The position numbers and the translations under genes are program-made. Source: an uncultured Arcobacteraceae bacterium (GTDB lineage Bacteria > Campylobacterota > Campylobacteria > Campylobacterales > Arcobacteraceae). Taken from it: a stretch of DNA of 39,064 bases. This document shows, piece by piece, positions 8,947 to 35,474 of the stretch. The stretch is taken from the NCBI GenBank assembly GCA_964022095.1, contig CAXHZO010000021.1, positions 1-39,064 on the forward strand, given 5' to 3'. Numbering within the stretch: the first letter of the stretch is position 1; every line of letters starts with the position of its first letter. The notes under the pieces are model-generated. The model ran no database searches. It saw only the letters and a list, made by a program, of their open reading frames with translations, and was not told the origin of the DNA.

Positions 8947-8971
8947 AACACATACACAAAAGGCATAAAAT

Positions 8972-10315: not shown

Positions 10316-10347
10316 ATTACATATAAATAAATAGGAATATCACACAT

Positions 10348-12590: not shown

Positions 12591-12603
12591 AGGAAAGAAA
12601 TAA

Positions 12604-17288: not shown

Positions 17289-17301
17289 AGGTTTTAAAAT
17301 T

Positions 17302-19598: not shown

Positions 19599-20160
19599 AG
19601 AAGACTATTATGATTATTTATATCATGACAAAATGGCTAATAATAAAAAAAATAAAAAATTAAATATTTTACATTTCTTTGGCTTTGGTGAACCAATTTG
19701 GGTATTTTTAGTATTATTAAGAAAACTAGAATATATAAAGAATTGTAAAAATGGCTTTATATGGAAGATTTATTTCAAAATAATTTATTTTTTTTATATA
19801 AAACAATCTATGAATCTTGATTTTAGTATTCCTTTAAATACTTTAGGAAAAGGTGTTTCTATAGCTCACAGAGGAACAATTGTAATTAACTCAAAAGCTA
19901 GACTAGGACAAAATTGTAGAATTCATGTATGTGTTAATATTGGTGCATATGGTGAAGGGGCACCAAAAATTGGTAAAAATGTATATATTGCTCCTGGTGC
20001 AAAAATATTTGGAAACATTGAAATAGCAGATGATATAGCAATAGGTGCAAATGCTGTTGTTAATAAAAGTTTTACTGAAAAAAATATATCAATTGGAGGG
20101 ATACCTGCTAAAAAAATATCAGATAATGGTTCTAAAGGTTTGGTTCCAAACTATGAATAA
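19585..20160 (+). CDS. Serine-acetyltransferase-like left-handed beta-helix O-acetyltransferase
   Basis: LGKGVSIAHRGTIVINSKARLGQNCRIH, PKIGKNVYIAPGAKIFG, IGANAVV hexapeptide repeats. Confidence 0.85.
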   Translation: MIKNKEDYYDYLYHDKMANNKKNKKLNILHFFGFGEPIWVFLVLLRKLEYIKNCKNGFIWKIYFKIIYFFYIKQSMNLDFSIPLNTLGKGVSIAHRGTIVINSKARLGQNCRIHVCVNIGAYGEGAPKIGKNVYIAPGAKIFGNIEIADDIAIGANAVVNKSFTEKNISIGGIPAKKISDNGSKGLVPNYE

Positions 20161-21259
20161 AATAAATCTTTTATTTATTATTCCATCTTTAAGAGGTGGT
20201 GGAGCAGAAAGAGTTGTTACTATTCTTTTAAAATATATTGATAAAAATAAGTTTAATTTAACTCTAGCATTACTTAAAAAAGAAGGCAAATATTTAGAAG
20301 ACATTCCTTCAGATATAGAAGTAGTAGATTTACAAGTGAAAAGAGCTAGATATTCTATTTTTAAAATTATTAAGCTTATAAATAAAAAGAAACCTGATAT
20401 TACATTTTCAACATTAGGGTATTTAAATTTAATCATTTCAATTATAAAACCTTTTTTATCAAAAAAAACAGTTTTTATTGGTCGAGAATCAAATACAGTA
20501 AGTGTTAAAAATAAATTAGAAAAATATCCCAGATTTTTTGATTTTTTATATAAAAAATTCTATTCAAATTTTGACTCAATTATTGCACAAGCAAACTTTA
20601 TGAAAAATGATTTAGTTGAAAACTATGGAATATCAAGTGAAAAGATTACAGTAATAAATAATCCTATTGATGTTCAGAAAGTAGAAGAGATGTCTAATAA
20701 AAATATAGAGTTTAATTTTCCAAAAGATAAAATTAATTTATTAGCAGTGGGAAAGTTAAAACATCAAAAAGGTTTTGATAATCTTTTAACAATTATGTCT
20801 CAAATTGATGAAAAATATCATTTAACTATTTTAGGTGAAGGACCTGATGAAAAAAGTCTAAAAGAACAATCAAAAAAATTAAATTTAGATAATAGAGTAA
20901 GTATGGCTGGTTTTCAGTCTAATCCATATGCTTTTATGAAACAAGCAGATATCTTTTTACTGTCATCTAGATATGAAGGTTTTCCAAATGTTGTATCAGA
21001 GGCTAACCTTTGTGGAATACCTACAATAGCATTTAACTCTCCAGGTGGTACTGAAGAAATAGTGCGAGAGGATAATGGTTTACTTATTGAAAATAACAAT
21101 TTCAAAGCTTTTGAAAATGCAATTAATTTATTTGAATTAAATAAATATGATGAACAGGCTATTAAAGATTCAATTATTAACAGGTTTTCAAATGAAATAA
21201 TTGTAAAAATTTATGAAAAACATTTCATAAGGTGTATGGAGCAAAAAAATGGAAAATAA
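20153..21259 (+). CDS. GT4 glycosyltransferase (PglJ/WabH-like); start revised from 20045 to ATG 20153
   Basis: MNKINLLFIIPSLRGGGAERV is a typical GT4 N-terminus. SSRYEGFPNVVSEA. ATG 20153 overlaps the upstream stop; the 36-aa extension lies inside the previous gene. Confidence 0.87.
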   Translation: MNKINLLFIIPSLRGGGAERVVTILLKYIDKNKFNLTLALLKKEGKYLEDIPSDIEVVDLQVKRARYSIFKIIKLINKKKPDITFSTLGYLNLIISIIKPFLSKKTVFIGRESNTVSVKNKLEKYPRFFDFLYKKFYSNFDSIIAQANFMKNDLVENYGISSEKITVINNPIDVQKVEEMSNKNIEFNFPKDKINLLAVGKLKHQKGFDNLLTIMSQIDEKYHLTILGEGPDEKSLKEQSKKLNLDNRVSMAGFQSNPYAFMKQADIFLLSSRYEGFPNVVSEANLCGIPTIAFNSPGGTEEIVREDNGLLIENNNFKAFENAINLFELNKYDEQAIKDSIINRFSNEIIVKIYEKHFIRCMEQKNGK

Positions 21260-22424
21260 GAAAATTGCCTTTTTAATAAACTCTTTAACTGCTGGTGGAG
21301 CTGAACGTGTTCTAAGTATAATCTTAGCAGAACTTGAAAAAACTGATATACAAATAGAATTAATTTGTCTAGAAAATAATATTTTTTATAAAATTCCTAA
21401 AAATATAAAAGTTACTTACTTGTCAGATAGTGATGGAAATACAAACTCTATAGGAAAACTTCTTAGTATGCCTCTTTTAGCAAAAAAATTAAAAAAACAT
21501 ATTAAAGAGAATAATATAGATTTAGTTCAAAGTCATATATATAGGGCTAACTTTATCAATGCTTTATCTAAACAACTTGGCTCTTCCCATGAAGTTCAAA
21601 TGGTAAATGCTGGTCAAGTAAGTATGTACAAATCAAAAGGTTTATTAGGTAAGGTAAATCTTTTTTTAGTACAAAAGCTTTATCCTCTTTCAAATAAAGT
21701 TATATGTAAGTCTAAAGGGATGGAATATGATTTACAAACATATTTTAATGGAAATTTGAATACAACTATTATTAATAATCCATATGATTTAGAAAAAATA
21801 AAAATTCTTACTGAAGAATCAATAAATGACTTTGATTTTAATGAAGATAAAAAATATTTAATTTATGTTGGAAGGTTTGCTTCATTTAAAAGACCTGACT
21901 ATGTAATTGAATCACTAAAATACCTTGATGAAAATGTAGAACTAATTCTTTTAGGAGATGGTCCTAAAAAAGAAACTTTAATTGAGCTTTCAGAATCTTT
22001 AAACTTATCTAATAGAGTTCATTTCTTAGGAAAAGTTTCTAACCCTTATAAATATATGAAACAAAGTGATGTTTTTATATTAAGTTCAGATGATGGGGAG
22101 GGTTTTCCTAATGTTCTAGCTGAAGCTATGGCTTGTCAAACATCTGTTATTGCTACAGATTGTAAGAGTGGGCCTAGAGAAATTTTATCACCTAAAAGTG
22201 AAGTTAATAAAGAGTTAGTTGATGATTTAGAACTTTGTGAAAATGGCATTTTAGTTCCAAAAGGAAAGCCTAAAATCATAGCAAAAGCAATTAATATAAT
22301 TTTAGAAGATTCAACTTTTCAAAAACAAATTACTGTACAAGCTTTAAATCGTGTAAATGATTTTTCTAAAAATTCTATTATTGAAAAATATAAAGATACT
22401 CTATTTAACAAAGTGAGCAAATAA
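21249..22424 (+). CDS. GT4 glycosyltransferase (PglJ-like)
   Basis: FLINSLTAGGAERV, YVGRF..FKR, NPYKYM, EGFPNVLAEAMAC, DCKSGPREIL. Confidence 0.88.
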   Translation: MENKKIAFLINSLTAGGAERVLSIILAELEKTDIQIELICLENNIFYKIPKNIKVTYLSDSDGNTNSIGKLLSMPLLAKKLKKHIKENNIDLVQSHIYRANFINALSKQLGSSHEVQMVNAGQVSMYKSKGLLGKVNLFLVQKLYPLSNKVICKSKGMEYDLQTYFNGNLNTTIINNPYDLEKIKILTEESINDFDFNEDKKYLIYVGRFASFKRPDYVIESLKYLDENVELILLGDGPKKETLIELSESLNLSNRVHFLGKVSNPYKYMKQSDVFILSSDDGEGFPNVLAEAMACQTSVIATDCKSGPREILSPKSEVNKELVDDLELCENGILVPKGKPKIIAKAINIILEDSTFQKQITVQALNRVNDFSKNSIIEKYKDTLFNKVSK

Positions 22425-22425
22425 T

Positions 22426-23427
22426 ATGTTAATTTCTATTCAATTTCTAAGAGCTTATGCTTCTTTAATAGTAGTACTACATCATATTACATATAAAGAC
22501 AAAATTTATGGAAATGATGTTTTAAGCTTTTTTACATTTGGTGAGATAGGGGTTGATATATTTTTTATTATTTCTGGTTATATCATGATGTATAGTACAC
22601 ATAGGAAACCTGTTAAGGCTAAAGATTTTATAATAAACAGGGTAATTAGAATTATTCCTTTATATTGGGTTTTAACTATATGCGCACTTATAATTTTCAT
22701 GGTATTACCTGATAAAGTTAATTCATCAGGAGGAACTACTGTAATATTTGAATCATTTTTCCTATTACCTACGGAAGGTAAGTACTTAATACAGAATGGT
22801 TGGACTTTACGTTACGAGTTTTTATTTTATTTTATTTTTATGTTTAGTTTATTTTTAAATAATAAAAAATATATTTTAATTATTATAACAACTTTAGTTT
22901 TATTAGGTTTATTTATTGAATCTGAAAATATTTATTTTAATTTTATTACTAAAGATTTAATTCTAGAATTTGTTTTTGGTATTTTTCTTTATTTTCTTTT
23001 TTATAAATACGGTAAAGATAAAGACAATCTAAAACTCTCAATATTTTTTATAGTAATAAGTTTCATTCTACTATATTTTCTTTTGCAAAATGAAAACACA
23101 ATGAGATACCGTTCTATTTATTATGGTATTCCAGCTTTTTTATTTACTTATGGAATAATCCTAATAGAAAACTTTTTTACAAAGTATAAAAAATATATTT
23201 TACCACTAGGAAATAGTTCCTATTCCTTATATCTAGTACATCCTTTTATTCTTGTTGCAAATATAATAATTCTAAAAAATTTTTATTCAGAAAAAATTTT
23301 TTTTGATATTATATTAATTTTTTCAATGCTTATTTTTTCAATAATAGCAGGGTTATTAGTTTATTACTATATAGAACTTAATTTAATAAGTTTTTTTAAA
23401 AAGTTTAAAATGAAAAAAAAGGTTTAA
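22426..23427 (+). CDS. Acyltransferase-3 (OafA-like) membrane O-acyltransferase
   Basis: SIQFLRAYASLIVVLHH, GVDIFFIISGYIM, RVIRIIPLYW, WTLRYEFLFY, LGNSSYSLYLVH. Confidence 0.92.
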   Translation: MLISIQFLRAYASLIVVLHHITYKDKIYGNDVLSFFTFGEIGVDIFFIISGYIMMYSTHRKPVKAKDFIINRVIRIIPLYWVLTICALIIFMVLPDKVNSSGGTTVIFESFFLLPTEGKYLIQNGWTLRYEFLFYFIFMFSLFLNNKKYILIIITTLVLLGLFIESENIYFNFITKDLILEFVFGIFLYFLFYKYGKDKDNLKLSIFFIVISFILLYFLLQNENTMRYRSIYYGIPAFLFTYGIILIENFFTKYKKYILPLGNSSYSLYLVHPFILVANIIILKNFYSEKIFFDIILIFSMLIFSIIAGLLVYYYIELNLISFFKKFKMKKKV

Positions 23428-23428
23428 A

Positions 23429-24538
23429 ATGAAAAAAAATGTAGTTATTTTATATAATACAACAGTTTATGTGTATAAATTTAGGATTAATTTAATTAAA
23501 AAAATACAAGAACTTGGGTATCAAGTAATTGTTGTTTCTCCTAAAGACGAATATGTTGAAAAACTTAAAGAACAAGGAATTAAACATATAAATATTAATA
23601 TGTCTCAATATGGTATGAACCCCATAAAGGAGATAAAGACATCATATGATATCTATAAGATTTTTAAGAAATATAATCCTGAATTTTCACTTCATTATAC
23701 TATAAAACCAAATATCTTTGGAGGTATTGCAGCAGCTTTTACTTCGGTGAAAGTTATTAATAATATTGCAGGTGCAGGAAAAGCATTTTCAAATGAAGAA
23801 TCTTTATTTGCAAAATTAATTTCAATTTTATATAAAATAGGATTAAAAAGTTCGAGAAAAATATTTTTTCAAAACTTTGATGATATGAATTTATTTTTAA
23901 ATAGAAAGTTAGTAAAAAAAGAACTAGCAGAAAGAATACCTGGCTCTGGCGTTGATTTAAATAAATATAAAACAAGTTCAATATCTACTGATAATACTTT
24001 TTTATTTGTTGGAAGGCTCTTAAAAGAAAAAGGTATTGAATATTATTTAGAAGCTGCAAAAAAGACCCTTTCTTTTTCTCCTGATGCAAAATTTTTTATT
24101 GTAGGGGAACATGAAGAAAGAAGTGAATATATAGAAAAAGATAAATTAGATAAATATTTAGAAAATGAAAATATAATATATTATGGTACTGTATCTCCTG
24201 ATAAAATGCCAGAAATTATAGATAACTCTTCATGTGTAGTATTGCCATCTTATTACAGAGAAGGTGTTCCAAGATCATTACTTGAAGCGGGAGCAATGTC
24301 AAAAGTAATAATAACAACAAATAATGTAGGTTGTAAAGAAGTAGTTGATGAAGGATATAATGGATTTAAATGTGAAATAAAAAATTCAGATTGTTTACAT
24401 AAATCAATGATGAGATATGTTAATTTAAAGGAAGAAGATAAAGTTACAATGAGTAAAAATTCAAGATTAAAAATGGTAAAAGAATTTGATGAAAATATTG
24501 TTCTTAGTAAATATATAAATATAATAAAGGAAAGTTAA
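23429..24538 (+). CDS. GT4 glycosyltransferase (PglA/CapM-like, likely first elongation step)
   Basis: YKFRINLI, YTIKPNIFG, FFQNFDD, IPGSGVDL, GRLLKEKGI, PSYYREGVPRSLLEA. Confidence 0.9.
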   Translation: MKKNVVILYNTTVYVYKFRINLIKKIQELGYQVIVVSPKDEYVEKLKEQGIKHININMSQYGMNPIKEIKTSYDIYKIFKKYNPEFSLHYTIKPNIFGGIAAAFTSVKVINNIAGAGKAFSNEESLFAKLISILYKIGLKSSRKIFFQNFDDMNLFLNRKLVKKELAERIPGSGVDLNKYKTSSISTDNTFLFVGRLLKEKGIEYYLEAAKKTLSFSPDAKFFIVGEHEERSEYIEKDKLDKYLENENIIYYGTVSPDKMPEIIDNSSCVVLPSYYREGVPRSLLEAGAMSKVIITTNNVGCKEVVDEGYNGFKCEIKNSDCLHKSMMRYVNLKEEDKVTMSKNSRLKMVKEFDENIVLSKYINIIKES

Positions 24539-25491
24539 TGAAAATATTAATTACAGGTGGAAGTGGTTTTATAGGTACAAGATTAATCGATGAGTTAATC
24601 AAAGAAGAAAGTCACGAAATTATAATATATGACAAAGTTAAAAGTGAAAAATATCCAGAATTATGTATACAAGATGATATTAGAAATGTTGATTCATTAA
24701 CGAAAGCTTGTGAAGGAGTAGAAGTTATCTATAACTTAGCAGCAGAACATGCTGATAATGTAACTCCTCAATCACTATATGCAGATGTAAATATAGGTGG
24801 TGCAGATAATGTTGTCCAAGCTGCAAAAGTAAATAATATCTCTAAAATTATATTCACTAGTTCTGTAGCAATCTATGGATTAAACAGAGGTACTCCGACA
24901 GAAGATATGGAAGCAAAACCTTTCAATGAATATGGTAGAACAAAATATGAAGCTGAAAAAATCTTTTTAGCCTGGCAAAAAGAAAATGAAAATAACAATC
25001 TTCAAATAGTAAGACCAGCTGTTGTATTTGGAGAAAACAATAGAGGGAATGTTTATAATCTGATAAATCAAATTTCTACAGGAAAGTTTGCAATGATAGG
25101 AGATGGACTAAATAAAAAGTCTATGGGATATGTAGGAAATATTGCTAAGTTTTTATGTGAACTAAAATCTTCAGAAAAAACATTAGATATATTTAACTTT
25201 GCAGGAAAAGGGGATCTTAGTACTAAAGAAATAGTAGAAATAGTAAGAGATGAATTATCTATAGAAAAACCTTTTCCAAAAATTCCATATTGTGTTGGAA
25301 TAATAGGTGGTACAATGCTTGATATTTTATCAAGTATCACAGGCAAAAAATTCCCTGTAAGTAAAGTAAGAGTTCAAAAGTTTGCAGCTGAAACTACAGT
25401 TTCTACAAAGCATCTATTTGAAAGTGGATTTAAAGAAGCCTATAGTTTAGAAGATGGTCTTAGAGCTATGATAAGATATGAATTTAATTAA
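24538..25491 (+). CDS. gnu: GlcNAc-P-P-undecaprenol 4-epimerase (Gnu-like)
   Basis: LAAEHADNVTP.SLY.DVN, FTSSVAIYGLN, PFNEYG, FGENNRGNVYNL, KSMGYVGNI and ITGKK..VS.VRV.KF match my recollection of E. coli O157 Gnu. Confidence 0.8.
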   Translation: MKILITGGSGFIGTRLIDELIKEESHEIIIYDKVKSEKYPELCIQDDIRNVDSLTKACEGVEVIYNLAAEHADNVTPQSLYADVNIGGADNVVQAAKVNNISKIIFTSSVAIYGLNRGTPTEDMEAKPFNEYGRTKYEAEKIFLAWQKENENNNLQIVRPAVVFGENNRGNVYNLINQISTGKFAMIGDGLNKKSMGYVGNIAKFLCELKSSEKTLDIFNFAGKGDLSTKEIVEIVRDELSIEKPFPKIPYCVGIIGGTMLDILSSITGKKFPVSKVRVQKFAAETTVSTKHLFESGFKEAYSLEDGLRAMIRYEFN

Positions 25492-27346
25492 ACAATTTTA
25501 AGTAAATTCTTTTATATAAACTCCTATTGAATCTTTCTTCTGTGATAAATACTTGTGGCCAGCACAAAGAAAGATTCTTTTTATTTTTTATTCTATATGC
25601 TAATAACACATCTATATTTGTTTTTTGACTATAAACTTCAAATATTAATTTTGCATGATTATTACTTATAATTATATCTTCTATTAATTTCTTTATTTTA
25701 GTACTCTTTACATTTTTTAAAGCACTAATTAAAAATTCATTAGTCTTTTCAAAATCTTTTATAGAAAAAAAATCTTTTAAGTTTCTATATAAAAATCTCT
25801 TACCTTTAAAGCCAGCTGCTCTCTTTATGTATTTTAATCTTTTTTGTTCAAAATTATTGCGCCAATATTTATAATATTTTTTAATATAAACTTTTGAACT
25901 ACCAAATATTTTATAATACTCATTTTCAAGTTCCTCAAATGATTTATTTGGATTATTAAAAGATTGAATTAAAATATATCTAGTTATACCAGAAAAACTC
26001 CAATCATCAAAATTATAAGAACTATCATAATCTAATCCTAATATATTTGTATTATTAAAAACCTTAAATCTATCATATATATATTTTTCATGCCCCATAG
26101 GCAATCCAATATCATCGTTAAAATCATTCGGTCTTATAAAAACTTTTTTTAAACCTTTTTTTTTCCATTCATCTAAATCTTTTTTTATTTCTTTTGGTAA
26201 ATCACCAAATTTAGGAACAAAGCCTAAGATAATATCATCTTTTAAGATTTTTTTTGTAGGAGGATACCTATAATCACTATATGCATAAGCTATTAATTTT
26301 GAATCAGGATTAAATTTCTTTGATTTTTCTAATAACCTATTCCAAAAAAATATATATCTATCCGTTTTAGATTTTTTTTGAAAATCTTTATACCTATCAT
26401 CTTCTGAATCATGTAATCGACAGAATTCACAAGTACAATATCCTCGAGAATCATTTATGGTTGCATTATAAATATTCCTATTATATTGGGTATATACTTT
26501 TCTCCAATTTTCTACAATTTGATTTTGAAGATTTTCATTTGATATACAAAATTTCTGTCTACTTGCATCTAATAAAGGGAATCCTTCAACTCCTCTTTTA
26601 TTGCTTTCTGATAAAGAAAACCATTCAGGTTTTTTTTCCCCATATTTATTCCAGAACTTTCTGAAAGCATGACCATAAGAGGGCTTTGAAGAAATATGTA
26701 ATTTCATTCTTCTCTTCCAGAGTAAATCATCCTGCATATATTTTATTACATCTGATTTAGAATAGATTAGCTCTTTTGGAGTATATTTATTCATCTGTAG
26801 TTTCTTTACAAGTTTATTATATCTCCATATATCATTTCTAAATACAGTAAAATTGTAATTTGAATTCCAAGAAAAAGATTTATTAATTAATTTTAAATTT
26901 TTTATTTTCTTATATATTATCCCCTCATCTTTTGGTTTAACCCATCTAATTCCTAATTCATTATATAAAAAATCATATACAGAAAAAAGTGTTCCTACTT
27001 TATTTCTCATAAATAATACAGTTTCTAACTCAGTATTTTTTTTCTTCATAATTTCATCAATACCATATAAATATACCTTATTATCTTCTATTAAATAGTT
27101 AGACATTGAATCTATTTTAAAGTTTTTTTTTGGAGTTTTACCAATATAAAATACATATTTACCATCTGTTTTCAATGATGATATTAGAACTTTTTTATCT
27201 AATACTAATTCTAAATGTTTCTTTAATTCATTGGCAGCAAATTTTTTTATAAAATCTGCATTTGGATCTACAATAATTGTTACATTTTGACTATAGTTAG
27301 AAAACAATAATGAAACAGTAACAAGTAAAATTGATATAACTTTCAT
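25484..27346 (-). CDS. Secreted DUF4838-family protein (putative carbohydrate-active enzyme)
   Basis: Signal peptide, FAANELKKHL, GTLFSVYDFL..ELGIRW, HAF..PEWF, FCISN, ND..GYCTCEFC, DRY..FWN, AYAYSDYRYPP. Confidence 0.72.
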   Translation of the reverse strand: MKVISILLVTVSLLFSNYSQNVTIIVDPNADFIKKFAANELKKHLELVLDKKVLISSLKTDGKYVFYIGKTPKKNFKIDSMSNYLIEDNKVYLYGIDEIMKKKNTELETVLFMRNKVGTLFSVYDFLYNELGIRWVKPKDEGIIYKKIKNLKLINKSFSWNSNYNFTVFRNDIWRYNKLVKKLQMNKYTPKELIYSKSDVIKYMQDDLLWKRRMKLHISSKPSYGHAFRKFWNKYGEKKPEWFSLSESNKRGVEGFPLLDASRQKFCISNENLQNQIVENWRKVYTQYNRNIYNATINDSRGYCTCEFCRLHDSEDDRYKDFQKKSKTDRYIFFWNRLLEKSKKFNPDSKLIAYAYSDYRYPPTKKILKDDIILGFVPKFGDLPKEIKKDLDEWKKKGLKKVFIRPNDFNDDIGLPMGHEKYIYDRFKVFNNTNILGLDYDSSYNFDDWSFSGITRYILIQSFNNPNKSFEELENEYYKIFGSSKVYIKKYYKYWRNNFEQKRLKYIKRAAGFKGKRFLYRNLKDFFSIKDFEKTNEFLISALKNVKSTKIKKLIEDIIISNNHAKLIFEVYSQKTNIDVLLAYRIKNKKNLSLCWPQVFITEERFNRSLYKRIYLKLFN

Positions 27347-27350
27347 TTAT

Positions 27351-28505
27351 TTACTTAAATATTGATATAAATAATCTTAATGGTCTAATTATATAATATA
27401 AGATATTAGTTTTTTTCGATAGATTAATAAAATATATATCATAATGTGTTGGCTTGAAAATTGATGATAAAAAATACTTCACACTATCAAATTTTGAGTC
27501 TTGAAGTTTTGATATTGATAAAAACTTTTTTAAAATTTGCTTCTTTTGTATTTTTATTTTACTTTCATAAAAATGCTCATTATTTATACTTTTGAAAATA
27601 TCATTTAAAACTATATCGAAATTTTGGTACATTTTTATTTCATTATGTATTAGTTGATCTAATTTTGTTTTATATAAACTATTACTAATAAGTAAACCTA
27701 ATAAAAACATATTTCTTACTTTTAATTTTTTAGATAACTTTAATAAATCTTCCCAATTGATTTTATATTTATTTATAATCCTATCTACATCTGTAATCCA
27801 CTCTACTCTTTCCCATAAATGCTTTGAACCATGAACACATAAATATAATAAATATAAATTAATATCTAGTGTCTTAATATTTTGAGAATTTAAATTTATA
27901 TTCGAAATATTTTCCCATATACTATATTGATCAAAATTATCATTTATCAATTTTCTAAATAATTTCCAATGTAATTCTATGTGAATATTATTATTAGTAA
28001 ATAAACTACAGTCACTTCCTACTTCCAATAATGCTTCATTTTTTAATATTGCTAAATCCAAGTCTACTTTATATTTATTTAAATTTAAAACTTTTACTAC
28101 CTCATAAACGTTACTGTCTTTAACTAATAAATCCAAATCACTATACTGCCTAGAAACTATGTCTCCGTAAGCCAACTGTGACAAAGTAGGACCTTTAAAA
28201 GATATCACTTCTATATTGTTTTCTTCTAATAGTTTTGTGATTTTTACTAATTCTGCTGTCATTAACATATTTTGCTTGAGGATTTGTAGTTTTTTTAGTT
28301 TCATTATATTTAGCTTATCACTTGGTACTAAAATATCATAATCTTTAAGAGTCTTATATACTAAAGGAAATAATCCATGACACATCGCTATATATATAAA
28401 ATTATCCCAGTCTTTTATCTCTTTTATAAGATTCTTTATAGTATTTAAGTCTTTGATTTCTTTGCTACACTCTATAATAAGTAATATATTTGAATTAGTT
28501 ATCAC
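27351..28505 (-). CDS. NTP_transf_5 (PF14907-type) nucleotidyltransferase, as in phosphorylated lasso-peptide clusters
   Basis: W..F...A..HG..PL.Y, FKGPTLSQLAYGD...RQYSDLDLLV, IELHW, YLCVHGSKH.W....W..D. GTG start. Confidence 0.85.
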   Translation of the reverse strand: MITNSNILLIIECSKEIKDLNTIKNLIKEIKDWDNFIYIAMCHGLFPLVYKTLKDYDILVPSDKLNIMKLKKLQILKQNMLMTAELVKITKLLEENNIEVISFKGPTLSQLAYGDIVSRQYSDLDLLVKDSNVYEVVKVLNLNKYKVDLDLAILKNEALLEVGSDCSLFTNNNIHIELHWKLFRKLINDNFDQYSIWENISNINLNSQNIKTLDINLYLLYLCVHGSKHLWERVEWITDVDRIINKYKINWEDLLKLSKKLKVRNMFLLGLLISNSLYKTKLDQLIHNEIKMYQNFDIVLNDIFKSINNEHFYESKIKIQKKQILKKFLSISKLQDSKFDSVKYFLSSIFKPTHYDIYFINLSKKTNILYYIIRPLRLFISIFK

Positions 28506-28674
28506 TATTTAGTAACCCCTTTTTATTATTCATAATTGACCATTTAAGTAAATTTTGTTTAATCTTTTATATAATATTATACTAAAAATGTAAGATTTTA
28601 TTATTAAACTATTATTAAAACTTTTAAATTTTTTTTATTATAAAAAAAATCATATATCAACAAGGAGTAATTCA

Positions 28675-30045
28675 ATCACTAATATAATACTATGCGGAGG
28701 AAGTGGTATAAGACTATGGCCAATAAGTAGAACACTTATACCAAAACAATTTGTAAAATTGTTCAATGAAAAATCTTTATTCCAACTAACTGTTCAAAGA
28801 AACTCAAGTGTTTGTGATAGTCAATTTATTGTTTCAAATGCTGAACAATACTTCTTAGCTCTTGATCAACTTGAAGAGCTTAATAAAACTAATAATAAAT
28901 ACCTTTTAGAACCAGTAGGAAGAAATACTGCTCCTGCTATTGCCTTAGCTTGTATGCAATTAGATTATGATGAAATAGTTCTTGTTACTCCTAGTGATCA
29001 CTTAATTAAAAATGAAACACAGTATGCAAAGGTTTTAGAAAAAGCTAAAGATATGGCAAATGATAATAATCTTGTAACATTTGGTATTACTCCTACATTT
29101 GCTGAAACTGGATTTGGTTATATTGAAACTGTAAATACATATGATGTAAAAGCTTTCCATGAAAAACCTGATTTGCAAACTGCTACTTCATATTTAGAAG
29201 CTGGAAATTACTATTGGAACTCTGGTATGTTTATGTTTAAAGCAGGAGTATTTTTAGATGAACTAAAAAAACACTCTCCTGAAATATTTGATACATCAAA
29301 ATTAGCTTTAGAAAACTCTTCAAAAGATGATATTACTAGAATCAAACATGATGATATGATGAGTATTCCTGAAGATAGTATTGATTATGCTGTAATGGAA
29401 AAATCAAATATAGTAAAAGTAGTACCTAGTGATATAGCATGGAGTGATGTTGGAAGCTTTGATGCACTATATGAAGAGTTACCACAAGATAAAAATGGTA
29501 ATACAGTAAATCCTAATCATGTATCAATAGATAGTAAGAATAATCTTATTTATGGAAATCAAAGAAAAATTGCAACTGTAGATGTAGAAGATATGATAAT
29601 AGTAGATACAGGAGATGCACTATTAATATCTAAAAAAGGAAGTTCACAAAAAGTTAAAAAAGTAGTAGCAGAAGTTAGAAAGAATTCTGAACTACATAAT
29701 ATACACTTAACTGGACATAGACCTTGGGGAACATATACAGTGCTTGAAGACTCTGTAGGATATAAGATAAAAAGAATAGAAGTAAAACCAGGGAAGAGAC
29801 TGAGTTTACAAAAGCATTATCATAGAAATGAACACTGGATAGTAGTAAGCGGAACTGCAACAGTAACAGTAGGTGATAAAAAACAGTATATAAGACCAAA
29901 TGAATCAACATATATAAAAATGGGAGAGCTTCATAGGTTAGAGAATGAAGGAAAAATTCCAGTTGTTTTAATAGAAGCTCAAGTTGGTGAGTATACTGGT
30001 GAGGATGACATTGTTAGGGTTAGCGATGATTTTAAGAGGAGTTAA
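28675..30045 (+). CDS. manC: Mannose-1-phosphate guanylyltransferase/mannose-6-phosphate isomerase; homology extends to an ATC codon at 28675
   Basis: The frame upstream of the TTG at 28759 reads ITNIILCGGSGIRLWPISRTLIPKQF. Downstream motifs: LLEPVGRNTAPA, PSDH, WNSGMF, SIDYAVME, WSDVGS, cupin RPWG..LSLQKHYHRNEHW. RBS AAGGAG at 28662-28667. Confidence 0.92.
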   Translation: MTNIILCGGSGIRLWPISRTLIPKQFVKLFNEKSLFQLTVQRNSSVCDSQFIVSNAEQYFLALDQLEELNKTNNKYLLEPVGRNTAPAIALACMQLDYDEIVLVTPSDHLIKNETQYAKVLEKAKDMANDNNLVTFGITPTFAETGFGYIETVNTYDVKAFHEKPDLQTATSYLEAGNYYWNSGMFMFKAGVFLDELKKHSPEIFDTSKLALENSSKDDITRIKHDDMMSIPEDSIDYAVMEKSNIVKVVPSDIAWSDVGSFDALYEELPQDKNGNTVNPNHVSIDSKNNLIYGNQRKIATVDVEDMIIVDTGDALLISKKGSSQKVKKVVAEVRKNSELHNIHLTGHRPWGTYTVLEDSVGYKIKRIEVKPGKRLSLQKHYHRNEHWIVVSGTATVTVGDKKQYIRPNESTYIKMGELHRLENEGKIPVVLIEAQVGEYTGEDDIVRVSDDFKRS

Positions 30046-30302
30046 TCTTTTTTGATTAACCCTTTTTGCTCCAAGGCTTCGCAAAAATTTTGAATATCTA
30101 CTTCTAACTGTTCTTTTGGTACTTCGTACTTAGTAGATAACTCTTCTATAAGTTTATCTTTTGGTGTATTTTTTGAGATGTGTTCCCAGATATCTTTTCC
30201 TACTTCATTTATAGAAAAATACTCTTGTGTATTTGTATCTAAAATGATCACTTCATCATCTACCTCTTGGATAAATACTGTACTTGGTATTGTGTAATTC
30301 AT
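30042..30302 (-). CDS. PqqD-family RiPP recognition element (lasso B1-like peptide chaperone)
   Basis: 86 aa with the RRE pattern EVDDEVIILD....YFSINEVGKDIW....LIEELSTKYEV..EQLEVDIQNFCEALEQKGLI. ATGA overlap with the kinase stop. Confidence 0.9.
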   Translation of the reverse strand: MNYTIPSTVFIQEVDDEVIILDTNTQEYFSINEVGKDIWEHISKNTPKDKLIEELSTKYEVPKEQLEVDIQNFCEALEQKGLIKKD

Positions 30303-31159
30303 TTTGTTTCCTTTTGATGTGATATTATTGATTTGTATACTTCTTCTAATCTATTTTTATCCCATGGAATAATTATATTATATACTTTTAGTTTGTTTGC
30401 TATTGTTGATAGTTTATCAAATCTTGACTGAGTATTTACTCTTAGGTCTATATCTGTAGCATATCTTAGGGCAGTAAATTTTTCTATACCTTTGATTTCT
30501 GATATGTTTATTTCACTATTTTGAGGTGATTTTATTAGATTATAAATACTGTTTATTTCACTTGTTCTTTCTTGGAAATTTTGCGTATAAAGACCTAGAT
30601 CTTCTACTTTTCTGTATGGTCTATGATATGGATATGAAGGTACAGCTATGACTTTGTCTTCATCTAAGTATGTAGCTACTTTATCATCTGATATCATAGT
30701 ATGATTTTTTTTGATAAAAAAATCTGTGAGTGTGGATTTTCCACCAAAAGAGTTTGCTATAAATAACACTGCTTTATCTTCTATATTAACAGCTCCACCA
30801 TGTATATAATAGTACTTGTTTTCAATAGTTAATAAAATAGGTAAAAAAGTATGAGTAAGCCAATAGTTCACTAACTCATGAGTACCATTTTTATGTAGTT
30901 TATAATATATAATATCACTTGAAATATTTGCCCAAAATGTAACTACATCTTGTACATCAAAAAATATTTTTTGATTTTTTTGAAGATTATCAAAAGATTT
31001 ATCACTAGTGATTGAGACTTTTCTGTATTGGTTGTTGTTTAGATAAAGTATCTGTGTAGTATCAAAATCAAAAGAATCATCTCTTTTGATTTGATATGTG
31101 TTTTTTTTAGCTTTTTTTAGCTCATCTGTATAGACTAAATTATAGCCGTAGGCGTACAT
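30299..31159 (-). CDS. HPr-kinase-like P-loop kinase (lasso peptide kinase-like)
   Basis: IHGGAV....AVLFIANSFGGKSTL.......MISDD gives the His, Walker A and DD pattern of the HPrK catalytic domain. Start directly abuts the peptide stop (TAGATG). Confidence 0.82.
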   Translation of the reverse strand: MYAYGYNLVYTDELKKAKKNTYQIKRDDSFDFDTTQILYLNNNQYRKVSITSDKSFDNLQKNQKIFFDVQDVVTFWANISSDIIYYKLHKNGTHELVNYWLTHTFLPILLTIENKYYYIHGGAVNIEDKAVLFIANSFGGKSTLTDFFIKKNHTMISDDKVATYLDEDKVIAVPSYPYHRPYRKVEDLGLYTQNFQERTSEINSIYNLIKSPQNSEINISEIKGIEKFTALRYATDIDLRVNTQSRFDKLSTIANKLKVYNIIIPWDKNRLEEVYKSIISHQKETK

Positions 31160-31369
31160 CTATTTTCCGAAAAGATTATATGCATCGCCTCTATCGTTAC
31201 CTGTGTTAGGATTTGTAGTACCATCGTTTGGTGTTTCAGATCCACCACCTACAAAACTTCCAGCAGCTGCTTTTGAAGGATTTGTAATTTGTCCTAATGC
31301 AATAACAGTTGGAACTGTATATGCAGCCTTTTTAAGAAATTCTCTTCTTGATTGTGTTTTTTTATCCAT
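31160..31369 (-). CDS. 69-aa putative RiPP-like precursor with twin-arginine signal and lasso-type leader motif
   Basis: RBS GGAG (31377-31380) and TATAAT (31399-31404) upstream. SRREFLK, YTVPTVIALG, SKAAA then a Gly/Ser/Thr/Asn/Asp-rich tail. First gene of the kinase-RRE operon. Confidence 0.8.
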   Translation of the reverse strand: MDKKTQSRREFLKKAAYTVPTVIALGQITNPSKAAAGSFVGGGSETPNDGTTNPNTGNDRGDAYNLFGK

Positions 31370-31471
31370 GTGTTCGCTCCATAAATTTGTATTATTGTAT
31401 TATAACTTAATTTATTACAATTTTACCTTAGAAAGAGTTTAAAAATTATACAAAAGATTATTTTCATTATT

Positions 31472-31495
31472 TTGTAATCAAATTGTAATTTTTAT
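31472..31495. promoter_or_regulatory. Candidate regulator site (TTGTAA direct repeat, 11-bp period), copy 2
   Basis: ttgtaatcaaattgtaatttttat, 22/24 identical to 5459-5482. Confidence 0.5.
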
Positions 31496-31564
31496 GCATA
31501 TTATATTTGATGTTTTATAACATACTATGTTATTATAAGCAATTATATTTAAAAAAGGGAGCAG

Positions 31565-32371
31565 ATGCGAAAGATAGTATTAAACACTTTTTTATTATTT
31601 AGTATATTTTTACTAAGTGGGTGTTCATTAAAAGACTACAAGCTTTTCCAAGCAGAAAAAGTTGAGGAAGAAAAAGCTACTGTGATTACAGATACACAGT
31701 ACTTAAAAGATGTAAAGTTTGAATACAAGGTTCAAGCAAATGATAGATTATCTATCACTGTTTATGTACAGTCAGGAAAAGGTTCTCAACAGATGTCTTC
31801 AATGCTAACTACAAGATCAGACAGTAGTATCACAAACTCTGATGATGAAATTGGTATTTTAGTAACACAACAAGGAACGGTAAGACTACCACTTCTTGGA
31901 AGTGTGGAAGTTGTTGGATTAACAGAAGATGAAGTTTCTGAGAAACTAATATCACTATACAAAAAATATATAAGAAATCCTTATGTAATAACAGAAATCA
32001 AAAATCAAAGAGTTACTGTGATTGGTGAAGTTAAAAAGCCAGGTGTAGTAACAGTTACAAATGGAACATTGAACCTAATAGAAGCTATAGCTCAAAGTGG
32101 AGACTTAACAGACTTGGCTGAGAGAAATAATATCAAAATCATTAGAGGGGATCTGCGAAATCCTGATGTAAGAACTATAGATATCACTGATGTAACTGCA
32201 TTAAATGAATCTAGTTTACATTTAAGACCTAATGATATTATATATGTACAACCAAGAGCACTTAAAGGTATAAATAAAGCCTTTGATGAAATCAGTCCAT
32301 TTTGGAATATGTTAACAAGTATTCTTAATCCATTCGAAAAAAGAGTTAATATCTTAAATGGTGGCGACTAA
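31565..32371 (+). CDS. wza: Polysaccharide export outer-membrane lipoprotein (short OPX)
   Basis: Lipobox LLSGC, Poly_export motif Y.VQ.ND.LSI..G.VRLPLLG.V.V.GLT, SLBB VTVIGEVKKPG..NLIEAIAQSGDL, LRPNDIIYV. Confidence 0.9.
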   Translation: MRKIVLNTFLLFSIFLLSGCSLKDYKLFQAEKVEEEKATVITDTQYLKDVKFEYKVQANDRLSITVYVQSGKGSQQMSSMLTTRSDSSITNSDDEIGILVTQQGTVRLPLLGSVEVVGLTEDEVSEKLISLYKKYIRNPYVITEIKNQRVTVIGEVKKPGVVTVTNGTLNLIEAIAQSGDLTDLAERNNIKIIRGDLRNPDVRTIDITDVTALNESSLHLRPNDIIYVQPRALKGINKAFDEISPFWNMLTSILNPFEKRVNILNGGD

Positions 32372-34716
32372 TGGACACAAACAAAATACACAATGATGAA
32401 ATAGATTTAAAGGATTTATTTAAAACTGTTTTAAAATATAAATATATTATCGCACTTTTTGCGATAATATTTGCTTTTGGGTTTGCGTATTATGCATATA
32501 CAAAACCAAGTATCTACTCTTCTTATGCAACAATAGAGCTACAAGAAGAATCAAATGGATGGAACTCTGATGATGCCTTAAAAAAAGCATTTAGTGGTGG
32601 TAGTGTAAATGTAGAAAATCAAATAGAGATTTTTAAATCAAAATCTCTTCAAACAAAAGCTACAAAATTTTTAAATCTTGGGACTAGATACTTTACAGTA
32701 AAAAATCATAGAACTCATGAGTTTTATTTAAACTCACCTTTTGTAGTAGTAGATAAAATAATAGAAAATCCAATTTATGGGAAAAAATTTTTCTTGACTC
32801 CTATCGATGCAGATTCTTTTAGATTAGAAATAAGACCTATTTCTAAATACTCTAAAAGAGGTTTATTTGCTATGACAGGAATAAAGCCATATAATAAAGA
32901 AGAACTTATTACATATAATGAGGTTCATAAATATGGTGAAGATATATCAAATGAGTGGTTCAGTTTAAATATCAAAAAATTAACAACACTAGAAAATGAA
33001 GAGTATAGTTTCTCTTTTGTACATCCAGCTGCTCAATCTAATGTTTATTTTAATGGTCTTTCTGTAGGCCAAGTTTCAGAACTAGCATCTATAGTTAGAG
33101 TTTCTATTTTAGATAGTGTTTCTTTAAGAGCTAAAGATTTATTAAATAGTTTATTTAAAGCTTACTTAGAACAAGAAGTACAAAGAAAAAGTGAAGTTGC
33201 AAACTTATCTTTGGCTTTTATAGATGCTCAATTAGATGAGATTAATAAAAGACTAAAAAAATCTGAAACAAGTTTAGAAACATATAAAGAGACAAATGAT
33301 GTAATAAGCTTATCTGATAAAGCAAATACAATTTCTGAAAAACTAGTAGAATATGAATCAAAGCTTCAAGAACTAGGAATAGAAGAAAATATATTAAGTA
33401 ATTTATATCAATTTATTAGTAAAAACCAAAACTTATCTGGTCTTACAGTTGGTTCAGTAAATTTTGCAGATCCTGCACTTGCAAATCTGATAAAAAATCT
33501 TCATGAAATGGCAACTCAAAAAGAATCTCTTCTTATTGACTATACTGAGTTACATCCTGATGTTGAAAAACTAACTAAAACTATTGCATCTCTTAGACGA
33601 CAGATTATTGCTTCTTTAAAAAGTAATTTAAATCAAATTAATCAAAGAAAAAAATCTTTAAATAACTTAGTATACAAATATAAAAAATCTATAGAGACTC
33701 TTCCTAAACAAGAAAGAGAATTAACTAGACTTTCGAGACACTTTAATGTTAATGAAAAAGTATACTCATTTTTACTAGAAAAAAGAGCTGAAACGGCTAT
33801 TTTAAAATCTTCTACTATTTCAAATGCTAGAATCTTAGATGAAGCAATAAACTTCAGCCAAGCTGTTAAACCAAAAAGAGTTTTAATAGTACTTGTAGGA
33901 ATAATCTTAGGTGTGATATTTGGACTTGCATATGCATTTTTAAGAGAGTTTTTCAATAATACAATTAAAAATACAGATGAAATAGAAAAATATAGTGAAA
34001 TACCAATTTATGGAGTTGTGCCTTTTAATAAAAATAAAAAAACTGATAATATATTTGATGAGGCCTTTAGGTCTATTAGAACAAATCTTCAGTTCTTACC
34101 ACAAAATGAATCAAGTAGAATTATAAGTATTACATCATCTGTTTCTGGTGAAGGTAAAACAACTATTGCTGCTAAGCTTTCTAAGATTATTAGTCAAACA
34201 AATAAGAAAGTGATTATTTTAGATTTAGACTTAAGAAAAGCAAGTATCCATAAAGAGTTTGATATACCAAACAATATAGGTATTAGTAACTTTTTAACTG
34301 GTCAAAATAAGCTAGAAGAAGTTATCAAAAAAACTGAAAATAGCTTAGTAAATGTTATAACTACTGGTCCTTTACCTCCTAATCCTTCTGAGTTAATATT
34401 AACTGATGAGCTTAAGAATATGTTAGAAGAGTTGAAAAAAGTTTATGATTATATTATCATTGATACTCCTCCTGTAGGATTAGTAACTGATGCACTTATA
34501 TTAATGAACTTCTCTGATATTACATTTACTGTTGTTAGAGCTAACTATACAAGAAAAGAGTTTATTAAAAACCTTGATAGACTTGCAAAAGAGCACTCTC
34601 ACAATCATATTGGAATGATTTTAAATGGTGTTGAGATTGGTGATAAATATGGTTATGGTTATGGTGTAAGCTATGGCTATGGTTATGGAAATGGCAAATA
34701 CTACAAAAACAGATAA
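32371..34716 (+). CDS. wzc: Polysaccharide co-polymerase / BY-kinase
   Basis: DEIDLKDL, two TMs, YTELHPDV, EAFRSIRTNL, Walker A SGEGKTT, DLDLRK, IIDTPP, C-terminal tyrosine cluster YGYGYGVSYGYGYGNGKYY. Confidence 0.95.
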   Translation: MDTNKIHNDEIDLKDLFKTVLKYKYIIALFAIIFAFGFAYYAYTKPSIYSSYATIELQEESNGWNSDDALKKAFSGGSVNVENQIEIFKSKSLQTKATKFLNLGTRYFTVKNHRTHEFYLNSPFVVVDKIIENPIYGKKFFLTPIDADSFRLEIRPISKYSKRGLFAMTGIKPYNKEELITYNEVHKYGEDISNEWFSLNIKKLTTLENEEYSFSFVHPAAQSNVYFNGLSVGQVSELASIVRVSILDSVSLRAKDLLNSLFKAYLEQEVQRKSEVANLSLAFIDAQLDEINKRLKKSETSLETYKETNDVISLSDKANTISEKLVEYESKLQELGIEENILSNLYQFISKNQNLSGLTVGSVNFADPALANLIKNLHEMATQKESLLIDYTELHPDVEKLTKTIASLRRQIIASLKSNLNQINQRKKSLNNLVYKYKKSIETLPKQERELTRLSRHFNVNEKVYSFLLEKRAETAILKSSTISNARILDEAINFSQAVKPKRVLIVLVGIILGVIFGLAYAFLREFFNNTIKNTDEIEKYSEIPIYGVVPFNKNKKTDNIFDEAFRSIRTNLQFLPQNESSRIISITSSVSGEGKTTIAAKLSKIISQTNKKVIILDLDLRKASIHKEFDIPNNIGISNFLTGQNKLEEVIKKTENSLVNVITTGPLPPNPSELILTDELKNMLEELKKVYDYIIIDTPPVGLVTDALILMNFSDITFTVVRANYTRKEFIKNLDRLAKEHSHNHIGMILNGVEIGDKYGYGYGVSYGYGYGNGKYYKNR

Positions 34717-34727: not shown

Positions 34728-35474
34728 TCAAATAAGATTATTTCTTATTTGATTCTTCTTAAATACTTCTTCTAATCCTGTGTTGTTTATATAACTTTCT
34801 AAAGAATTAAAATATTTCATTGAGTGAATATCACTACCTACAAAATCTATCAAAGAGTTATCTACTAAAAACTGTGCTGCGCCCTTTGGTTTTTTACCAT
34901 AAAACTGATTTAAAGAGTTTAGATTTAACTGAAATAATAAGCCCTGCTCTTTTAGATTATGATATTTTTCATAGCTTGATGAGTAATAAGTATATCTTTC
35001 AGGATGAGCTAAAATAGGTTTATATCCACTATTTAAAAGTTCAAATACCACTTGCTCTAATCCAAATGGATTTGAAGTATATGAAAGTTCAAATAATACA
35101 TAGTTATCCCCAAAAGTCATTAGATCTTTATTTTTTATTAGATTTATAAAATGTTCATCAAAATAATACTCAGCGGCTGCTTGTATTTCTATTGATATAT
35201 TTTGTTTATGAAGTTCATTTTGAACTTCTTCTAATCCTTTGAGAATAATATCTTTTGTATTTGGATATCTATGGCTCATAATATGTGGAGTAGTAATTAG
35301 TTTTTCATATCCTAGTTTTTTTAGATTTGATATGATTGAGATACTCTCTTCTAGTGTTTTTACACCATCATCTATTCCTGGGATTAGATGAGAGTGTAAA
35401 TCAGTTGTGTAGTAATATTTTAATGAATTTAGTTCTTGTTTCTTTTTAAAACTATTGATTAATTTTTTTAACAA
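34728..35474 (-). CDS. PHP-family tyrosine phosphatase (CpsB/CapC/YwqE type)
   Basis: DLHSHLIPGIDDG, ITTPH, AAEY, ILAHPERY, GSDIH. TTG start with AGGAGG at 35480-35485. Confidence 0.92.
   Translation of the reverse strand: MLKKLINSFKKKQELNSLKYYYTTDLHSHLIPGIDDGVKTLEESISIISNLKKLGYEKLITTPHIMSHRYPNTKDIILKGLEEVQNELHKQNISIEIQAAAEYYFDEHFINLIKNKDLMTFGDNYVLFELSYTSNPFGLEQVVFELLNSGYKPILAHPERYTYYSSSYEKYHNLKEQGLLFQLNLNSLNQFYGKKPKGAAQFLVDNSLIDFVGSDIHSMKYFNSLESYINNTGLEEVFKKNQIRNNLI

Follow-up and report, generated by a model that had tools for sequence, protein, structure and literature searches.

The stretch of DNA analyzed here (the window) is an entire 39-kb contig (C21; 39,064 nucleotides) from the 2.57-Mb, 99.99% complete genome of an uncultured Arcobacteraceae bacterium. 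Beside wza and wzc it carries genes for a 69-amino-acid (aa) precursor peptide, an HPr-kinase-like P-loop kinase, a PqqD-family recognition element (RRE) for peptides that are synthesized ribosomally and modified post-translationally (RiPPs) and a PF14907 nucleotidyltransferase, and related loci share this gene set without a lasso cyclase or B2 leader peptidase. On balance, we lean toward reading the set as a lasso-free peptide-tailoring cassette resembling the linear polyphosphorylated peptide (LPP) clusters of Bacillota, in which PqqD would dock the leader, the kinase and probably then the nucleotidyltransferase would decorate the peptide, and general export and signal peptidase I would replace a dedicated peptidase and pump. 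A leader peptidase and a pump of its own usually come with a RiPP pathway. In this cassette, the leader has apparently been rebuilt so that general export and signal peptidase do both jobs, which, if true, would make for a novel way of maturing modified peptides.

Gene content of the cassette and search for lasso enzymes

Five minus-strand genes, all with intact reading frames, make up the region of interest. They encode the precursor peptide (31160..31369), the kinase (286 aa, 30299..31159), a PqqD-family RRE of the lasso B1 type (86 aa, 30042..30302; PF05402, 64.8 bits), the PF14907 (NTP_transf_5) nucleotidyltransferase (384 aa, 27351..28505; 179.4 bits) and a 620-aa DUF4838 protein with a hydrophobic N terminus (25484..27346; PF16126, 65.2 bits). 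A previous sequence-only reading had named these genes at these coordinates, and its calls held, the PqqD, NTP_transf_5 and DUF4838 domains being matched and the kinase being recognized by its fold model and Walker A motif. The junctions that it described were also exact: the kinase start codon abuts the peptide stop codon (TAGATG), the kinase and PqqD genes are joined by an ATGA overlap, and 4 bp separate the nucleotidyltransferase gene from the DUF4838 gene, with which it is probably cotranscribed. A 195-bp spacer parts the peptide gene from the divergently transcribed wza (31565-32371, plus strand; Poly_export/SLBB domains) and wzc (32371-34716, plus strand; Wzz/GNVR/AAA_31 domains). The same reading placed the five genes as one antisense block within a plus-strand polysaccharide locus; this stood for the flanks, which do include wza and wzc, but not for the single block, since a plus-strand manC (28675..30045) sits between the nucleotidyltransferase and PqqD genes, overlapping the PqqD stop by 4 bp. 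Because manC intervenes, the minus-strand genes form two units, peptide-kinase-PqqD and nucleotidyltransferase-DUF4838.

No open reading frame (ORF) of at least 80 aa in the window matched PF00733 (Asn_synthase) or PF13471 (B2 peptidase), and the largest intergenic gaps were 234, 195, 173 and 169 bp, in agreement with the earlier claim that the 39 kb hold no cyclase or B2 and no gap that could hide one. Across the genome, PF13471 gave 0 matches, and hidden Markov models (HMMs) that we built from the lasso enzymes of relatives detected no B2; own-built HMMs for peptide, kinase, PqqD and nucleotidyltransferase likewise found each of them only once in the genome. PF00733 had one strong match in the genome, on contig C6, where its neighbors are a helicase, permeases and a TRAP transporter. 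As this protein scores above the TIGR01536 cut-off (416.9 against 267 bits) and far below that of the lasso cyclase model (200.7 against 525 bits), it is, judged from these scores, a housekeeping glutamine-hydrolyzing AsnB. These results support the view, already taken in the sequence-only reading, that the system is not of the lasso type.

Conservation among relatives of the kinase

Kinase homologues numbered 236 at an E value of ≤0.001 in a large protein collection, and 17 of 401 genomes sampled from the phylum had a match, a tally that includes the window's genome and two weak matches. The loci examined, 16 from the phylum-sample search and 80 from a scan of GTDB species genomes, were annotated with Pfam and with HMMs built from those annotations. 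In gene order A, that of complete lasso clusters, an ATP-binding cassette (ABC) gene is followed by B2, kinase, cyclase and PqqD (36 kinases). Gene order B-EPS runs Wza/Wzc-peptide-kinase-PqqD-nucleotidyltransferase (21 kinases, and another 5 where Wza/Wzc are not in view), and gene order B-LamG runs Laminin_G_3 protein-∼260-aa protein-peptide-kinase-PqqD (23 kinases).

In a maximum-likelihood tree of 95 kinases (IQ-TREE quick search, LG+G4; midpoint root for drawing only), the window's kinase fell into a clade of 27 (SH-aLRT 98) that comprises all B-EPS rows, the five loci without Wza/Wzc in view and L047. Left out of the tree were L023, L027 and L028 (same records as L066, L085 and L106) and fragments of less than 750 nucleotides (nt), namely, the second copy of L051 and both halves of L064; L089 and L115 had no kinase match and thus no place in it. 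The clade's hosts are Arcobacteraceae, Sulfurimonadaceae and other Campylobacterota; the window lies within an eight-member Arcobacter/Halarcobacter subclade (support 97), and the neighboring clades are lasso-type kinases. The L064 kinase is split into two ORFs (9866-10186 and 10210-10812, within L064:9866-10812), reflecting either a broken copy or an assembly error.

Within the clade, a peptide gene adjoins the kinase gene in 27 of 27 loci, a recurrence that puts the pairing beyond chance. PqqD was present in 25 of 27, both misses being contigs that end 18 and 114 bp past the kinase, and NTP_transf_5 was present in 20 of 27; of the 21 loci whose sequence runs on for 3 kb or more downstream, these make up all but one. 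Wza/Wzc adjoin 22 of 27 loci (12 divergent, 10 codirectional); this is in line with the link to polysaccharide export suggested beforehand, and its occurrence in two gene orders argues for selection on the linkage. In contrast, no locus carries B2 (0/27) and no lasso cyclase stands beside a kinase of the clade; the single cyclase-HMM match (1/27, L039) lies 7.5 kb off, with GATase_7 as its sole Pfam match. An ABC gene was found within 10 kb in 1 of the 26 other clade loci; the one nearest to the cassette in the window, a C39-peptidase ABC, is 26.6 kb away. The sequence-only reading would have had to yield if relatives always carried B2 and cyclase, making the window's copy a deletion remnant. 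Since the cyclase-less architecture is common to the 27 loci, the comparison of sequences indicates that the window's copy is a member of an old, conserved cyclase-less lineage and not a remnant.

The surroundings of this core vary. DUF4838 was found in 1 of 27 clade loci, the window alone (the HMM, built from that single sequence, has limited reach), and other genes stand beside the nucleotidyltransferase in four Pfam-scanned relatives (L039-L042), in three of them on its downstream side; we therefore dropped DUF4838, which had been counted as part of the module, from its core. In 6 of 27 clade loci, all of the Arcobacter group, manC or other GDP-sugar genes are wedged between PqqD and nucleotidyltransferase, GDP-mannose and GDP-fucose genes among them. 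Two of the five loci without Wza/Wzc in view (L046:4051-7706 and L074:5115-7905) have the cassette by a TgpA-like transglutaminase, in L046 also with a MoxR-type AAA_3 ATPase, where other loci have polysaccharide genes.

The B-LamG architecture occurs in Sulfurovum and kin without polysaccharide genes (L031:6533-10719; L024, L032, L033, L035, L076, L081, L090, L091, L097, L099, L113 and others). It comprises a large secreted Laminin_G_3/P_proprotein protein, the ∼260-aa protein, which has no Pfam or NCBIfam match, and a peptide with the same leader and a short Pro/Gly-rich tail (e.g., ...GPSGPPxxGW). In L024:6577-16565, L108 and L109, such a cassette is interleaved with a full lasso cluster in the order peptide-kinase-ABC-B2-second kinase-cyclase, with a single PqqD at the end in L024 and none in view in L108 or L109. 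These interleaved cassettes raise the same question of cross talk that Popov et al. studied in Bacillota (PMC13381572).

The precursor peptide and its leader

The peptide carries a motif of the twin-arginine translocation (Tat) type, SRREFLKK, at residues 7-14 (nt 31328-31351), a hydrophobic core from A15 to I28 and an A-x-A site, A34-A-A36 (nt 31262-31270). Overlapping the core is the RRE-type motif Y-x-x-P-x-V-x3-G (YTVPTVIALG, residues 17-26, nt 31292-31321), and S32 falls at Y+15. The spacing Y, P+3, V+5, G+9 and S+15 is that of the layout that we take to be typical of lasso leaders, with Gly at +9 and Ser/Thr at +15 from Tyr (part of this consensus spacing being presumed). Behind the A-x-A site, the tail consists of 33 residues, G37-K69 (GSFVGGGSETPNDGTTNPNTGNDRGDAYNLFGK), with DAYNLFGK at its C-terminal end; close relatives' peptides have a common C-terminal ...D-A-Y-N-L-F-G-K/R motif. 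Direct reading of the peptide revealed no double-glycine leader in register. By its sequence, the leader looks like a superposition of three signals, namely, the twin-arginine consensus S/T-R-R-x-F-L-K, an RRE motif and a −3/−1 small-residue site of the signal-peptidase-I type.

Conservation was counted in 58 family peptides found by HMM in 51 loci, with positions given relative to the conserved Tyr. Upstream, R−9 was present in 51, R−8 in all 58, F−6 in 51, L−5 in 49, K−4 in 52 and K−3 in 54; position 0 was Tyr in 56 and Trp in the other 2; and downstream, P+3 and [LVI]+5 were present in all 58, L+8 in 53 and G+9 in 56. The distal part was less uniform, with P+14 in 39, T/S+15 in 29, A+17 in 30 and A+19 in 42. 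RRx[FL][LIVM][KR] occurred in 57 of the 58. The tails were highly variable, with a mean column identity of 26% (alignment A2), whereas the leader was far more conserved. Discrete lasso RREs are described as recognizing a [Y/W]xxPx[L/V/I/F/A] motif (PMC13381572). A profile of 27 clade peptides matched 561 representative clusters at an E value of ≤0.001 among 1.84 billion proteins; in the best 150 of these, the peptides were 46 to 141 aa long (median, 79), and 136 had the combined RR + YxxP + LG motif.

As a control, the genome was searched for the N-terminal motif RRxF[LIVM][KRQ] in a list of 12,141 ORFs of at least 30 aa. It occurred in eight ORFs of at least 50 aa, and the other seven were all typical Tat cargo (a molybdopterin oxidoreductase, a MoCoBD enzyme, PhoD, a solute-binding protein, the NiFe hydrogenase small subunit, a transglutaminase-like protein and a sulfite-oxidase-type enzyme). 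Elsewhere, the genome also encodes TatC and, on contig C3, its only S26 signal peptidase. In the literature outside subscription journals, a search for twin-arginine together with RiPP, RRE, leader or lasso peptide yielded no description of a Tat-type RiPP leader.

Many longer family members carry in their tails one to three copies of the repeat NNG[WF]GNGDQxAPGNSLxHNxAEN (L085:12379-12780; L067, L092, L095, L102, L111 [second peptide]; L046, L048, L074, L047). In Sulfuricurvum, a second repeat-bearing peptide gene stands 3′ of the nucleotidyltransferase gene.

The putative tailoring enzymes

The best NCBIfam model for the window's PqqD protein, lasso_PqqD_Bac, gave 54.7 bits, short of its cut-off of 80. 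When built from 25 clade PqqD proteins, a profile matched the lasso RRE TbiB1 (5v1u) with an E value of 6.2e-20, as well as two 2026 PDB entries named as lasso/PqqD chaperones. The predicted complex of PqqD with leader residues 1-45 scored 0.58, but one control still reached 0.41, so that the score weighs neither for nor against docking.

The kinase matched Hpr_kinase_C with 25.9 bits, under the Pfam cut-off of 33.3, and its NCBIfam matches were also subthreshold. A profile of its family did match HPr kinase/phosphorylase (HPrK/P) chains in PDB (2qmh, E 8.5e-5), and its AlphaFold model (predicted local distance difference test [pLDDT] score, 92.2) had as best Foldseek matches the HPr kinase/phosphorylases 1knx, 3tqf and 1kkl (E 5e-8), followed by phosphoenolpyruvate carboxykinases. 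Among the 27 clade members, the Walker A motif G140-K-S-T143 was invariant, and G140, K141, S142, T143, D158, D159, H179 and R180 were near-invariant. An HPrK/P fold is thus backed by the structural model.

In the nucleotidyltransferase, the catalytic motif G105 ... D123-x-D125 is intact, and these residues are invariant. Its model (pLDDT, 91.1) has a pol-beta-type fold with MenT1, LnuA and ANT(2″)-Ia as Foldseek neighbors and, more weakly, FKRP, a phosphodiester-forming transferase. ANT(2″)-Ia is the same distant template that was given for PsmN (PMC6993621). A sequence search of PDB found no relative of either the nucleotidyltransferase or the DUF4838 protein.

Genes around the cassette

The plus-strand polysaccharide locus at 5568-25491 encodes an initiating glycosyltransferase, sugar-nucleotide enzymes, an MBOAT acyltransferase, a flippase, a Wzy-type polymerase and several GT1/GT4 enzymes. 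Directly 3′ of the MBOAT gene lies a 309-aa ORF without a Pfam match (15112-16041, plus strand), which may encode a partner protein of MBOAT. Upstream of this locus, at 136-5333 on the minus strand, is a type I secretion/peptide-export set (HlyD-family protein, C39-peptidase-domain ABC transporter and outer-membrane efflux protein) that is not kept beside the cassette in relatives. A minus-strand gene for a CpsB/CapC-type phosphatase, the usual partner of Wzc (34728..35474; PF19567, 144.6 bits), is part of the context; beside it, an ORF of at least 1,135 aa (35515-38922, minus strand, open to 39063) had no Pfam match at an E value of ≤1e-5.

The manC gene, for a mannose-1-phosphate guanylyltransferase/isomerase (GDP-mannose pyrophosphorylase/mannose-6-phosphate isomerase; TIGR01479, 500 bits), has an unusual 5′ end. 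In the in-frame reading of 28506-28760, no ATG, GTG or TTG start retains the N-terminal nucleotide-binding motif GGSGIRLWP, which is encoded in the same frame, upstream of the TTG (28759) listed as the start. As that TTG would cut the motif off, we favor the ATC at 28675, 7 nt behind AAGGAG, as the probable start on sequence grounds; it gives a protein of 456 aa, equal in length to ManC of the relative L028.

A scan of 25300-31700 gave no terminators and 45 promoter-like sites, fewer than the 51 that chance would produce. Contigs of 204 to 797 nt from sequencing runs, 95 to 99% identical to the window, lie over the peptide gene and the kinase gene's 5′ half, with none reaching past 31360. They come from four runs in three studies, one recorded as RNA and three guessed to be RNA, their RNA origin being unproven, and they indicate the presence of a near relative, not expression. 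The contigs of runs X1 and X2 (95 to 99% identical) have one extra T behind 31100, in the 5′ part of the kinase gene, which is either a frameshift in the near relative or an assembly error.

Proposed mechanism and rival explanations

We infer the following sequence of steps, with the 69-aa peptide as the substrate. PqqD would dock on the leader through Y-x-x-P-x-[LVI], as family knowledge and motif spacing suggest. The HPr-kinase-like enzyme would then phosphorylate the peptide on a Ser or Thr, most probably one that closely follows A-x-A; by analogy with Ser3 of LppA, the candidate is S38, at +2 after A-x-A, and in the 58 family peptides, no residue is more common than S at +2 and +3 after Y+19. 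The nucleotidyltransferase might extend this phosphate with a hexose, as PsmN does, or with another nucleotide-activated group; the GDP-sugar genes hint at a sugar donor, which the nearby GDP-mannose genes may supply. Housekeeping Tat (or Sec) and signal peptidase I would export and trim the peptide without B2, a SipW-like peptidase or a dedicated ABC pump, and what results would be a short peptide with decorations, located in the periplasm or matrix and linked in function to the polysaccharide that depends on Wza/Wzc, the linkage to Wza/Wzc being a hint of a matrix role. With a leader that seems suited to the Tat (or Sec) system and signal peptidase I of the cell itself, it would be understandable that B2, cyclase and ABC transporter are missing while the RRE is kept.

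Several points weigh against this proposal. The chemistry is predicted from sequence and models, and expression of the locus is presumed. Sequence does not reveal the phosphosite: the window's peptide ends in K and so lacks the C-terminal Ser on which lasso kinases act, a C-terminal S occurs in 13 of the 150 representative peptides, and Ser or Thr lies at most 3 residues behind A-x-A in 26 of the 34 peptides with a strict A-x-A. Pfam TAT_signal (PF10518) matched none of four family peptides at an E value of ≤1, in a search of low power in which one of the seven control proteins passed the cut-off and two more matched weakly, and the only Tat-signal-type Pfam match of the window's peptide was a weak one to UCR_Fe-S_N (E 0.12). 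Seated on the hydrophobic core of the signal, an RRE might obstruct export instead of aiding it. In the window, manC, on the opposite strand, comes between the trio and the nucleotidyltransferase; the latter is absent within 10 kb in the relative L062, and LppN, its presumed counterpart, was inactive in the only LPP study (PMC13381572). The distribution is patchy: in the sample of 401 genomes, which includes the window's own, 23 others belong to the same family, and none of these has the kinase. Wza/Wzc adjacency, being partly inherited among relatives, does not stand for 22 independent events.

A bolder form of the proposal makes the twin-arginine signal itself the RiPP leader and PqqD a Tat proofreading chaperone, which would hold the hydrophobic core until a phosphate-linked sugar or nucleotide has been added behind A-x-A; after export and trimming by signal peptidase I, the phosphoglycopeptide would join, prime or cap the Wza/Wzc polysaccharide. 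We consider this rather unlikely. A limited chance also goes to the same tailoring system with a twin-arginine-like motif that is only a docking surface for PqqD or the kinase, the peptide staying inside or exiting otherwise, for instance, through the C39-peptidase ABC/HlyD/outer-membrane efflux set at 136-5333. The entire leader, beyond the RR pair, is indeed conserved like a recognition sequence, the peptide lacks a TAT_signal match, an exporter with a peptidase domain is encoded on the same contig, and LPPs and lasso peptides use dedicated pumps (PMC13381572). However, the motif meets every position of the Tat consensus and is followed by a hydrophobic stretch and by small residues at −3/−1, and elsewhere in this genome it marks Tat-type enzymes (7/7). 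The exporter set lies far from the cassette, ABC genes are rare near the other clade loci, and we rejected this set as the exporter because it is not conserved and the peptide has no double-glycine leader. More doubtful is the idea that the peptide is merely a small Tat-exported protein and that PqqD, kinase and nucleotidyltransferase act on Wzc, another export component or a glycan. It would suit the position of the module beside Wza/Wzc and the very variable tails, some of more than 100 aa, yet it is at odds with the invariable adjacency of peptide and kinase, with their stop-to-start junction in the window, with the RRE motif at lasso spacing in the leader and with the role of the kinase's sister clades in lasso clusters; moreover, the peptide-kinase-PqqD trio also stands beside Laminin_G_3 proteins without polysaccharide genes (23 kinases).

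The readings that retain a lasso peptide fare worse. That the locus is a decaying lasso remnant, no longer functional after losing cyclase, B2 and pump, is highly improbable: close kinase relatives do sit in full lasso clusters and the leader retains the lasso layout, including Ser/Thr at Y+15, but the five frames are intact, kinase and nucleotidyltransferase show conserved catalytic residues, 27 loci of several families have the same cyclase-less layout, and the leader has gained a conserved RR and A-x-A that are missing from the five lasso precursors read. Least credible is a normal lasso peptide made by a cyclase and B2 encoded elsewhere in the genome. A cut after A36 would leave a tail G1 ... 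E9 with a permitted ring size, and D/E occurs at positions 7-9 in five of eight Arcobacter-group tails, although tails so rich in D/E would have it there by chance about one time in three; against it also stand the missing PF13471 match and the sole strong Asn_synthase homologue, which scores as a true AsnB in a housekeeping context. A hidden lasso ring was rejected, there being no cyclase. We thus retain the tailoring of a linear peptide, with export and trimming by the cell's general machinery, as the preferred reading.

Comparison with known systems

As we understand it, the NCBIfam HPr-rel-A system pairs an HprK-like kinase with a member of the PqqD family in the neighborhood of exopolysaccharide loci, and the sequence-only reading had named it as a possible relative. 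The models do not bear this out: the kinase scored 17.3 bits against TIGR04352 (cut-off, 200), PqqD had no TIGR04353 match at an E value of ≤0.01, and membership was rejected.

Tat signals have the consensus S-R-R-x-F-L-K, a moderately hydrophobic core and an A-x-A site, and cytoplasmic proofreading chaperones of the TorD/DmsD type bind them before export. The peptide resembles them in S7-R-R-E-F-L-K13, its hydrophobic core, its A-x-A and its putative cytoplasmic leader binder. It differs in that the cargo is a 33-aa tail instead of a folded cofactor enzyme, in that the binder has the PqqD fold of an RRE and is not of the TorD family, and in that export is here a prediction.

Paeninodin, pseudomycoidin and Bsf-type lasso peptides have the same three accessory enzyme types, and their kinase acts on the linear precursor (PMC8498205, PMC6993621). 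According to the available text of these papers, lasso clusters contain HPr-kinase homologues that place phosphate, in some cases more than once, on the C-terminal Ser of the linear precursor (PMC8498205), and the nucleotidyltransferase PsmN, with a DxD motif, is required to add one to two hexoses to the phosphoserine of pseudomycoidin (PMC6993621). These systems have a cyclase, B2, an ABC pump and a C-terminal Ser target, whereas here the genome holds no lasso cyclase or B2 and the peptide ends in Lys. The lasso clusters of Campylobacterota (e.g., L025, L026, L029 and L037) share a homologous kinase (35 to 45% identity), PqqD and the K-x-[Y/W]-x-x-P-x-[LIM] leader, and L025 also lies beside Wza, Wzc and NTP_transf_5. 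They differ by their ABC, B2 and cyclase genes, and their precursors (five read) lack RR and A-x-A and carry Thr at −2 and an acidic residue at 7-9, with Ser frequently at the C terminus.

The closest likeness, drawn by gene type, with PF14907 assumed as the family of LppN, is to the LPP clusters described in May 2026 (lppA-K-B-S-D-N of Paenibacillus alginolyticus; Popov et al., Nat Commun 2026; PMC13381572). As far as the available text of that paper goes, these combine an RRE with a kinase like HprK, an NTP transferase, a signal peptidase I (SpI)-like peptidase and an MsbA-like pump, are embedded in capsule loci, are termed restricted to Bacillota and have precursors in which a tail that varies follows a conserved YxxP leader; Ser3 of the core is polyphosphorylated by the kinase, and a signal-peptidase homologue cuts the leader with the help of the RRE (PMC13381572). 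They thereby provide a published precedent for the idea, raised in the sequence-only reading, of a linear peptide modified by an RRE-guided kinase. Both systems have a discrete PqqD-type RRE, an HprK-like kinase and an NTP transferase without a cyclase, a conserved [Y/W]xxP leader (Y17-T-V-P-T-V in the window) with a variable tail, a setting in a capsule or exopolysaccharide locus and, as it appears, leader removal of the type I signal-peptidase kind, dedicated in LPPs and presumably housekeeping here. On the other hand, the window yielded neither an S26 nor an S24 domain, so the cluster lacks a SipW-like peptidase, and it has no MsbA-like pump either. The leader has a twin-arginine consensus and A-x-A and lacks the LPP consensus beyond YxxPxV (VLxHQxIxFETxxS), the host is a Gram-negative campylobacterote and not a member of the Bacillota, and the cassette adjoins Wza/Wzc; the main text of PMC13381572 contains no occurrence of Tat, twin-arginine, Gram-negative or Proteobacteria. 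Our best reading is thus that the cassette works like an LPP system yet fails two of its defining features, the dedicated SpI-like peptidase and the pump. If true, this would extend the LPP family from Bacillota to Gram-negative sulfur-oxidizing and marine Campylobacterota. Popov et al. left the biological role of LPPs open (PMC13381572), and the recurrent tight link to Wza/Wzc makes their question, whether these peptides act in capsule or biofilm formation, a testable one.

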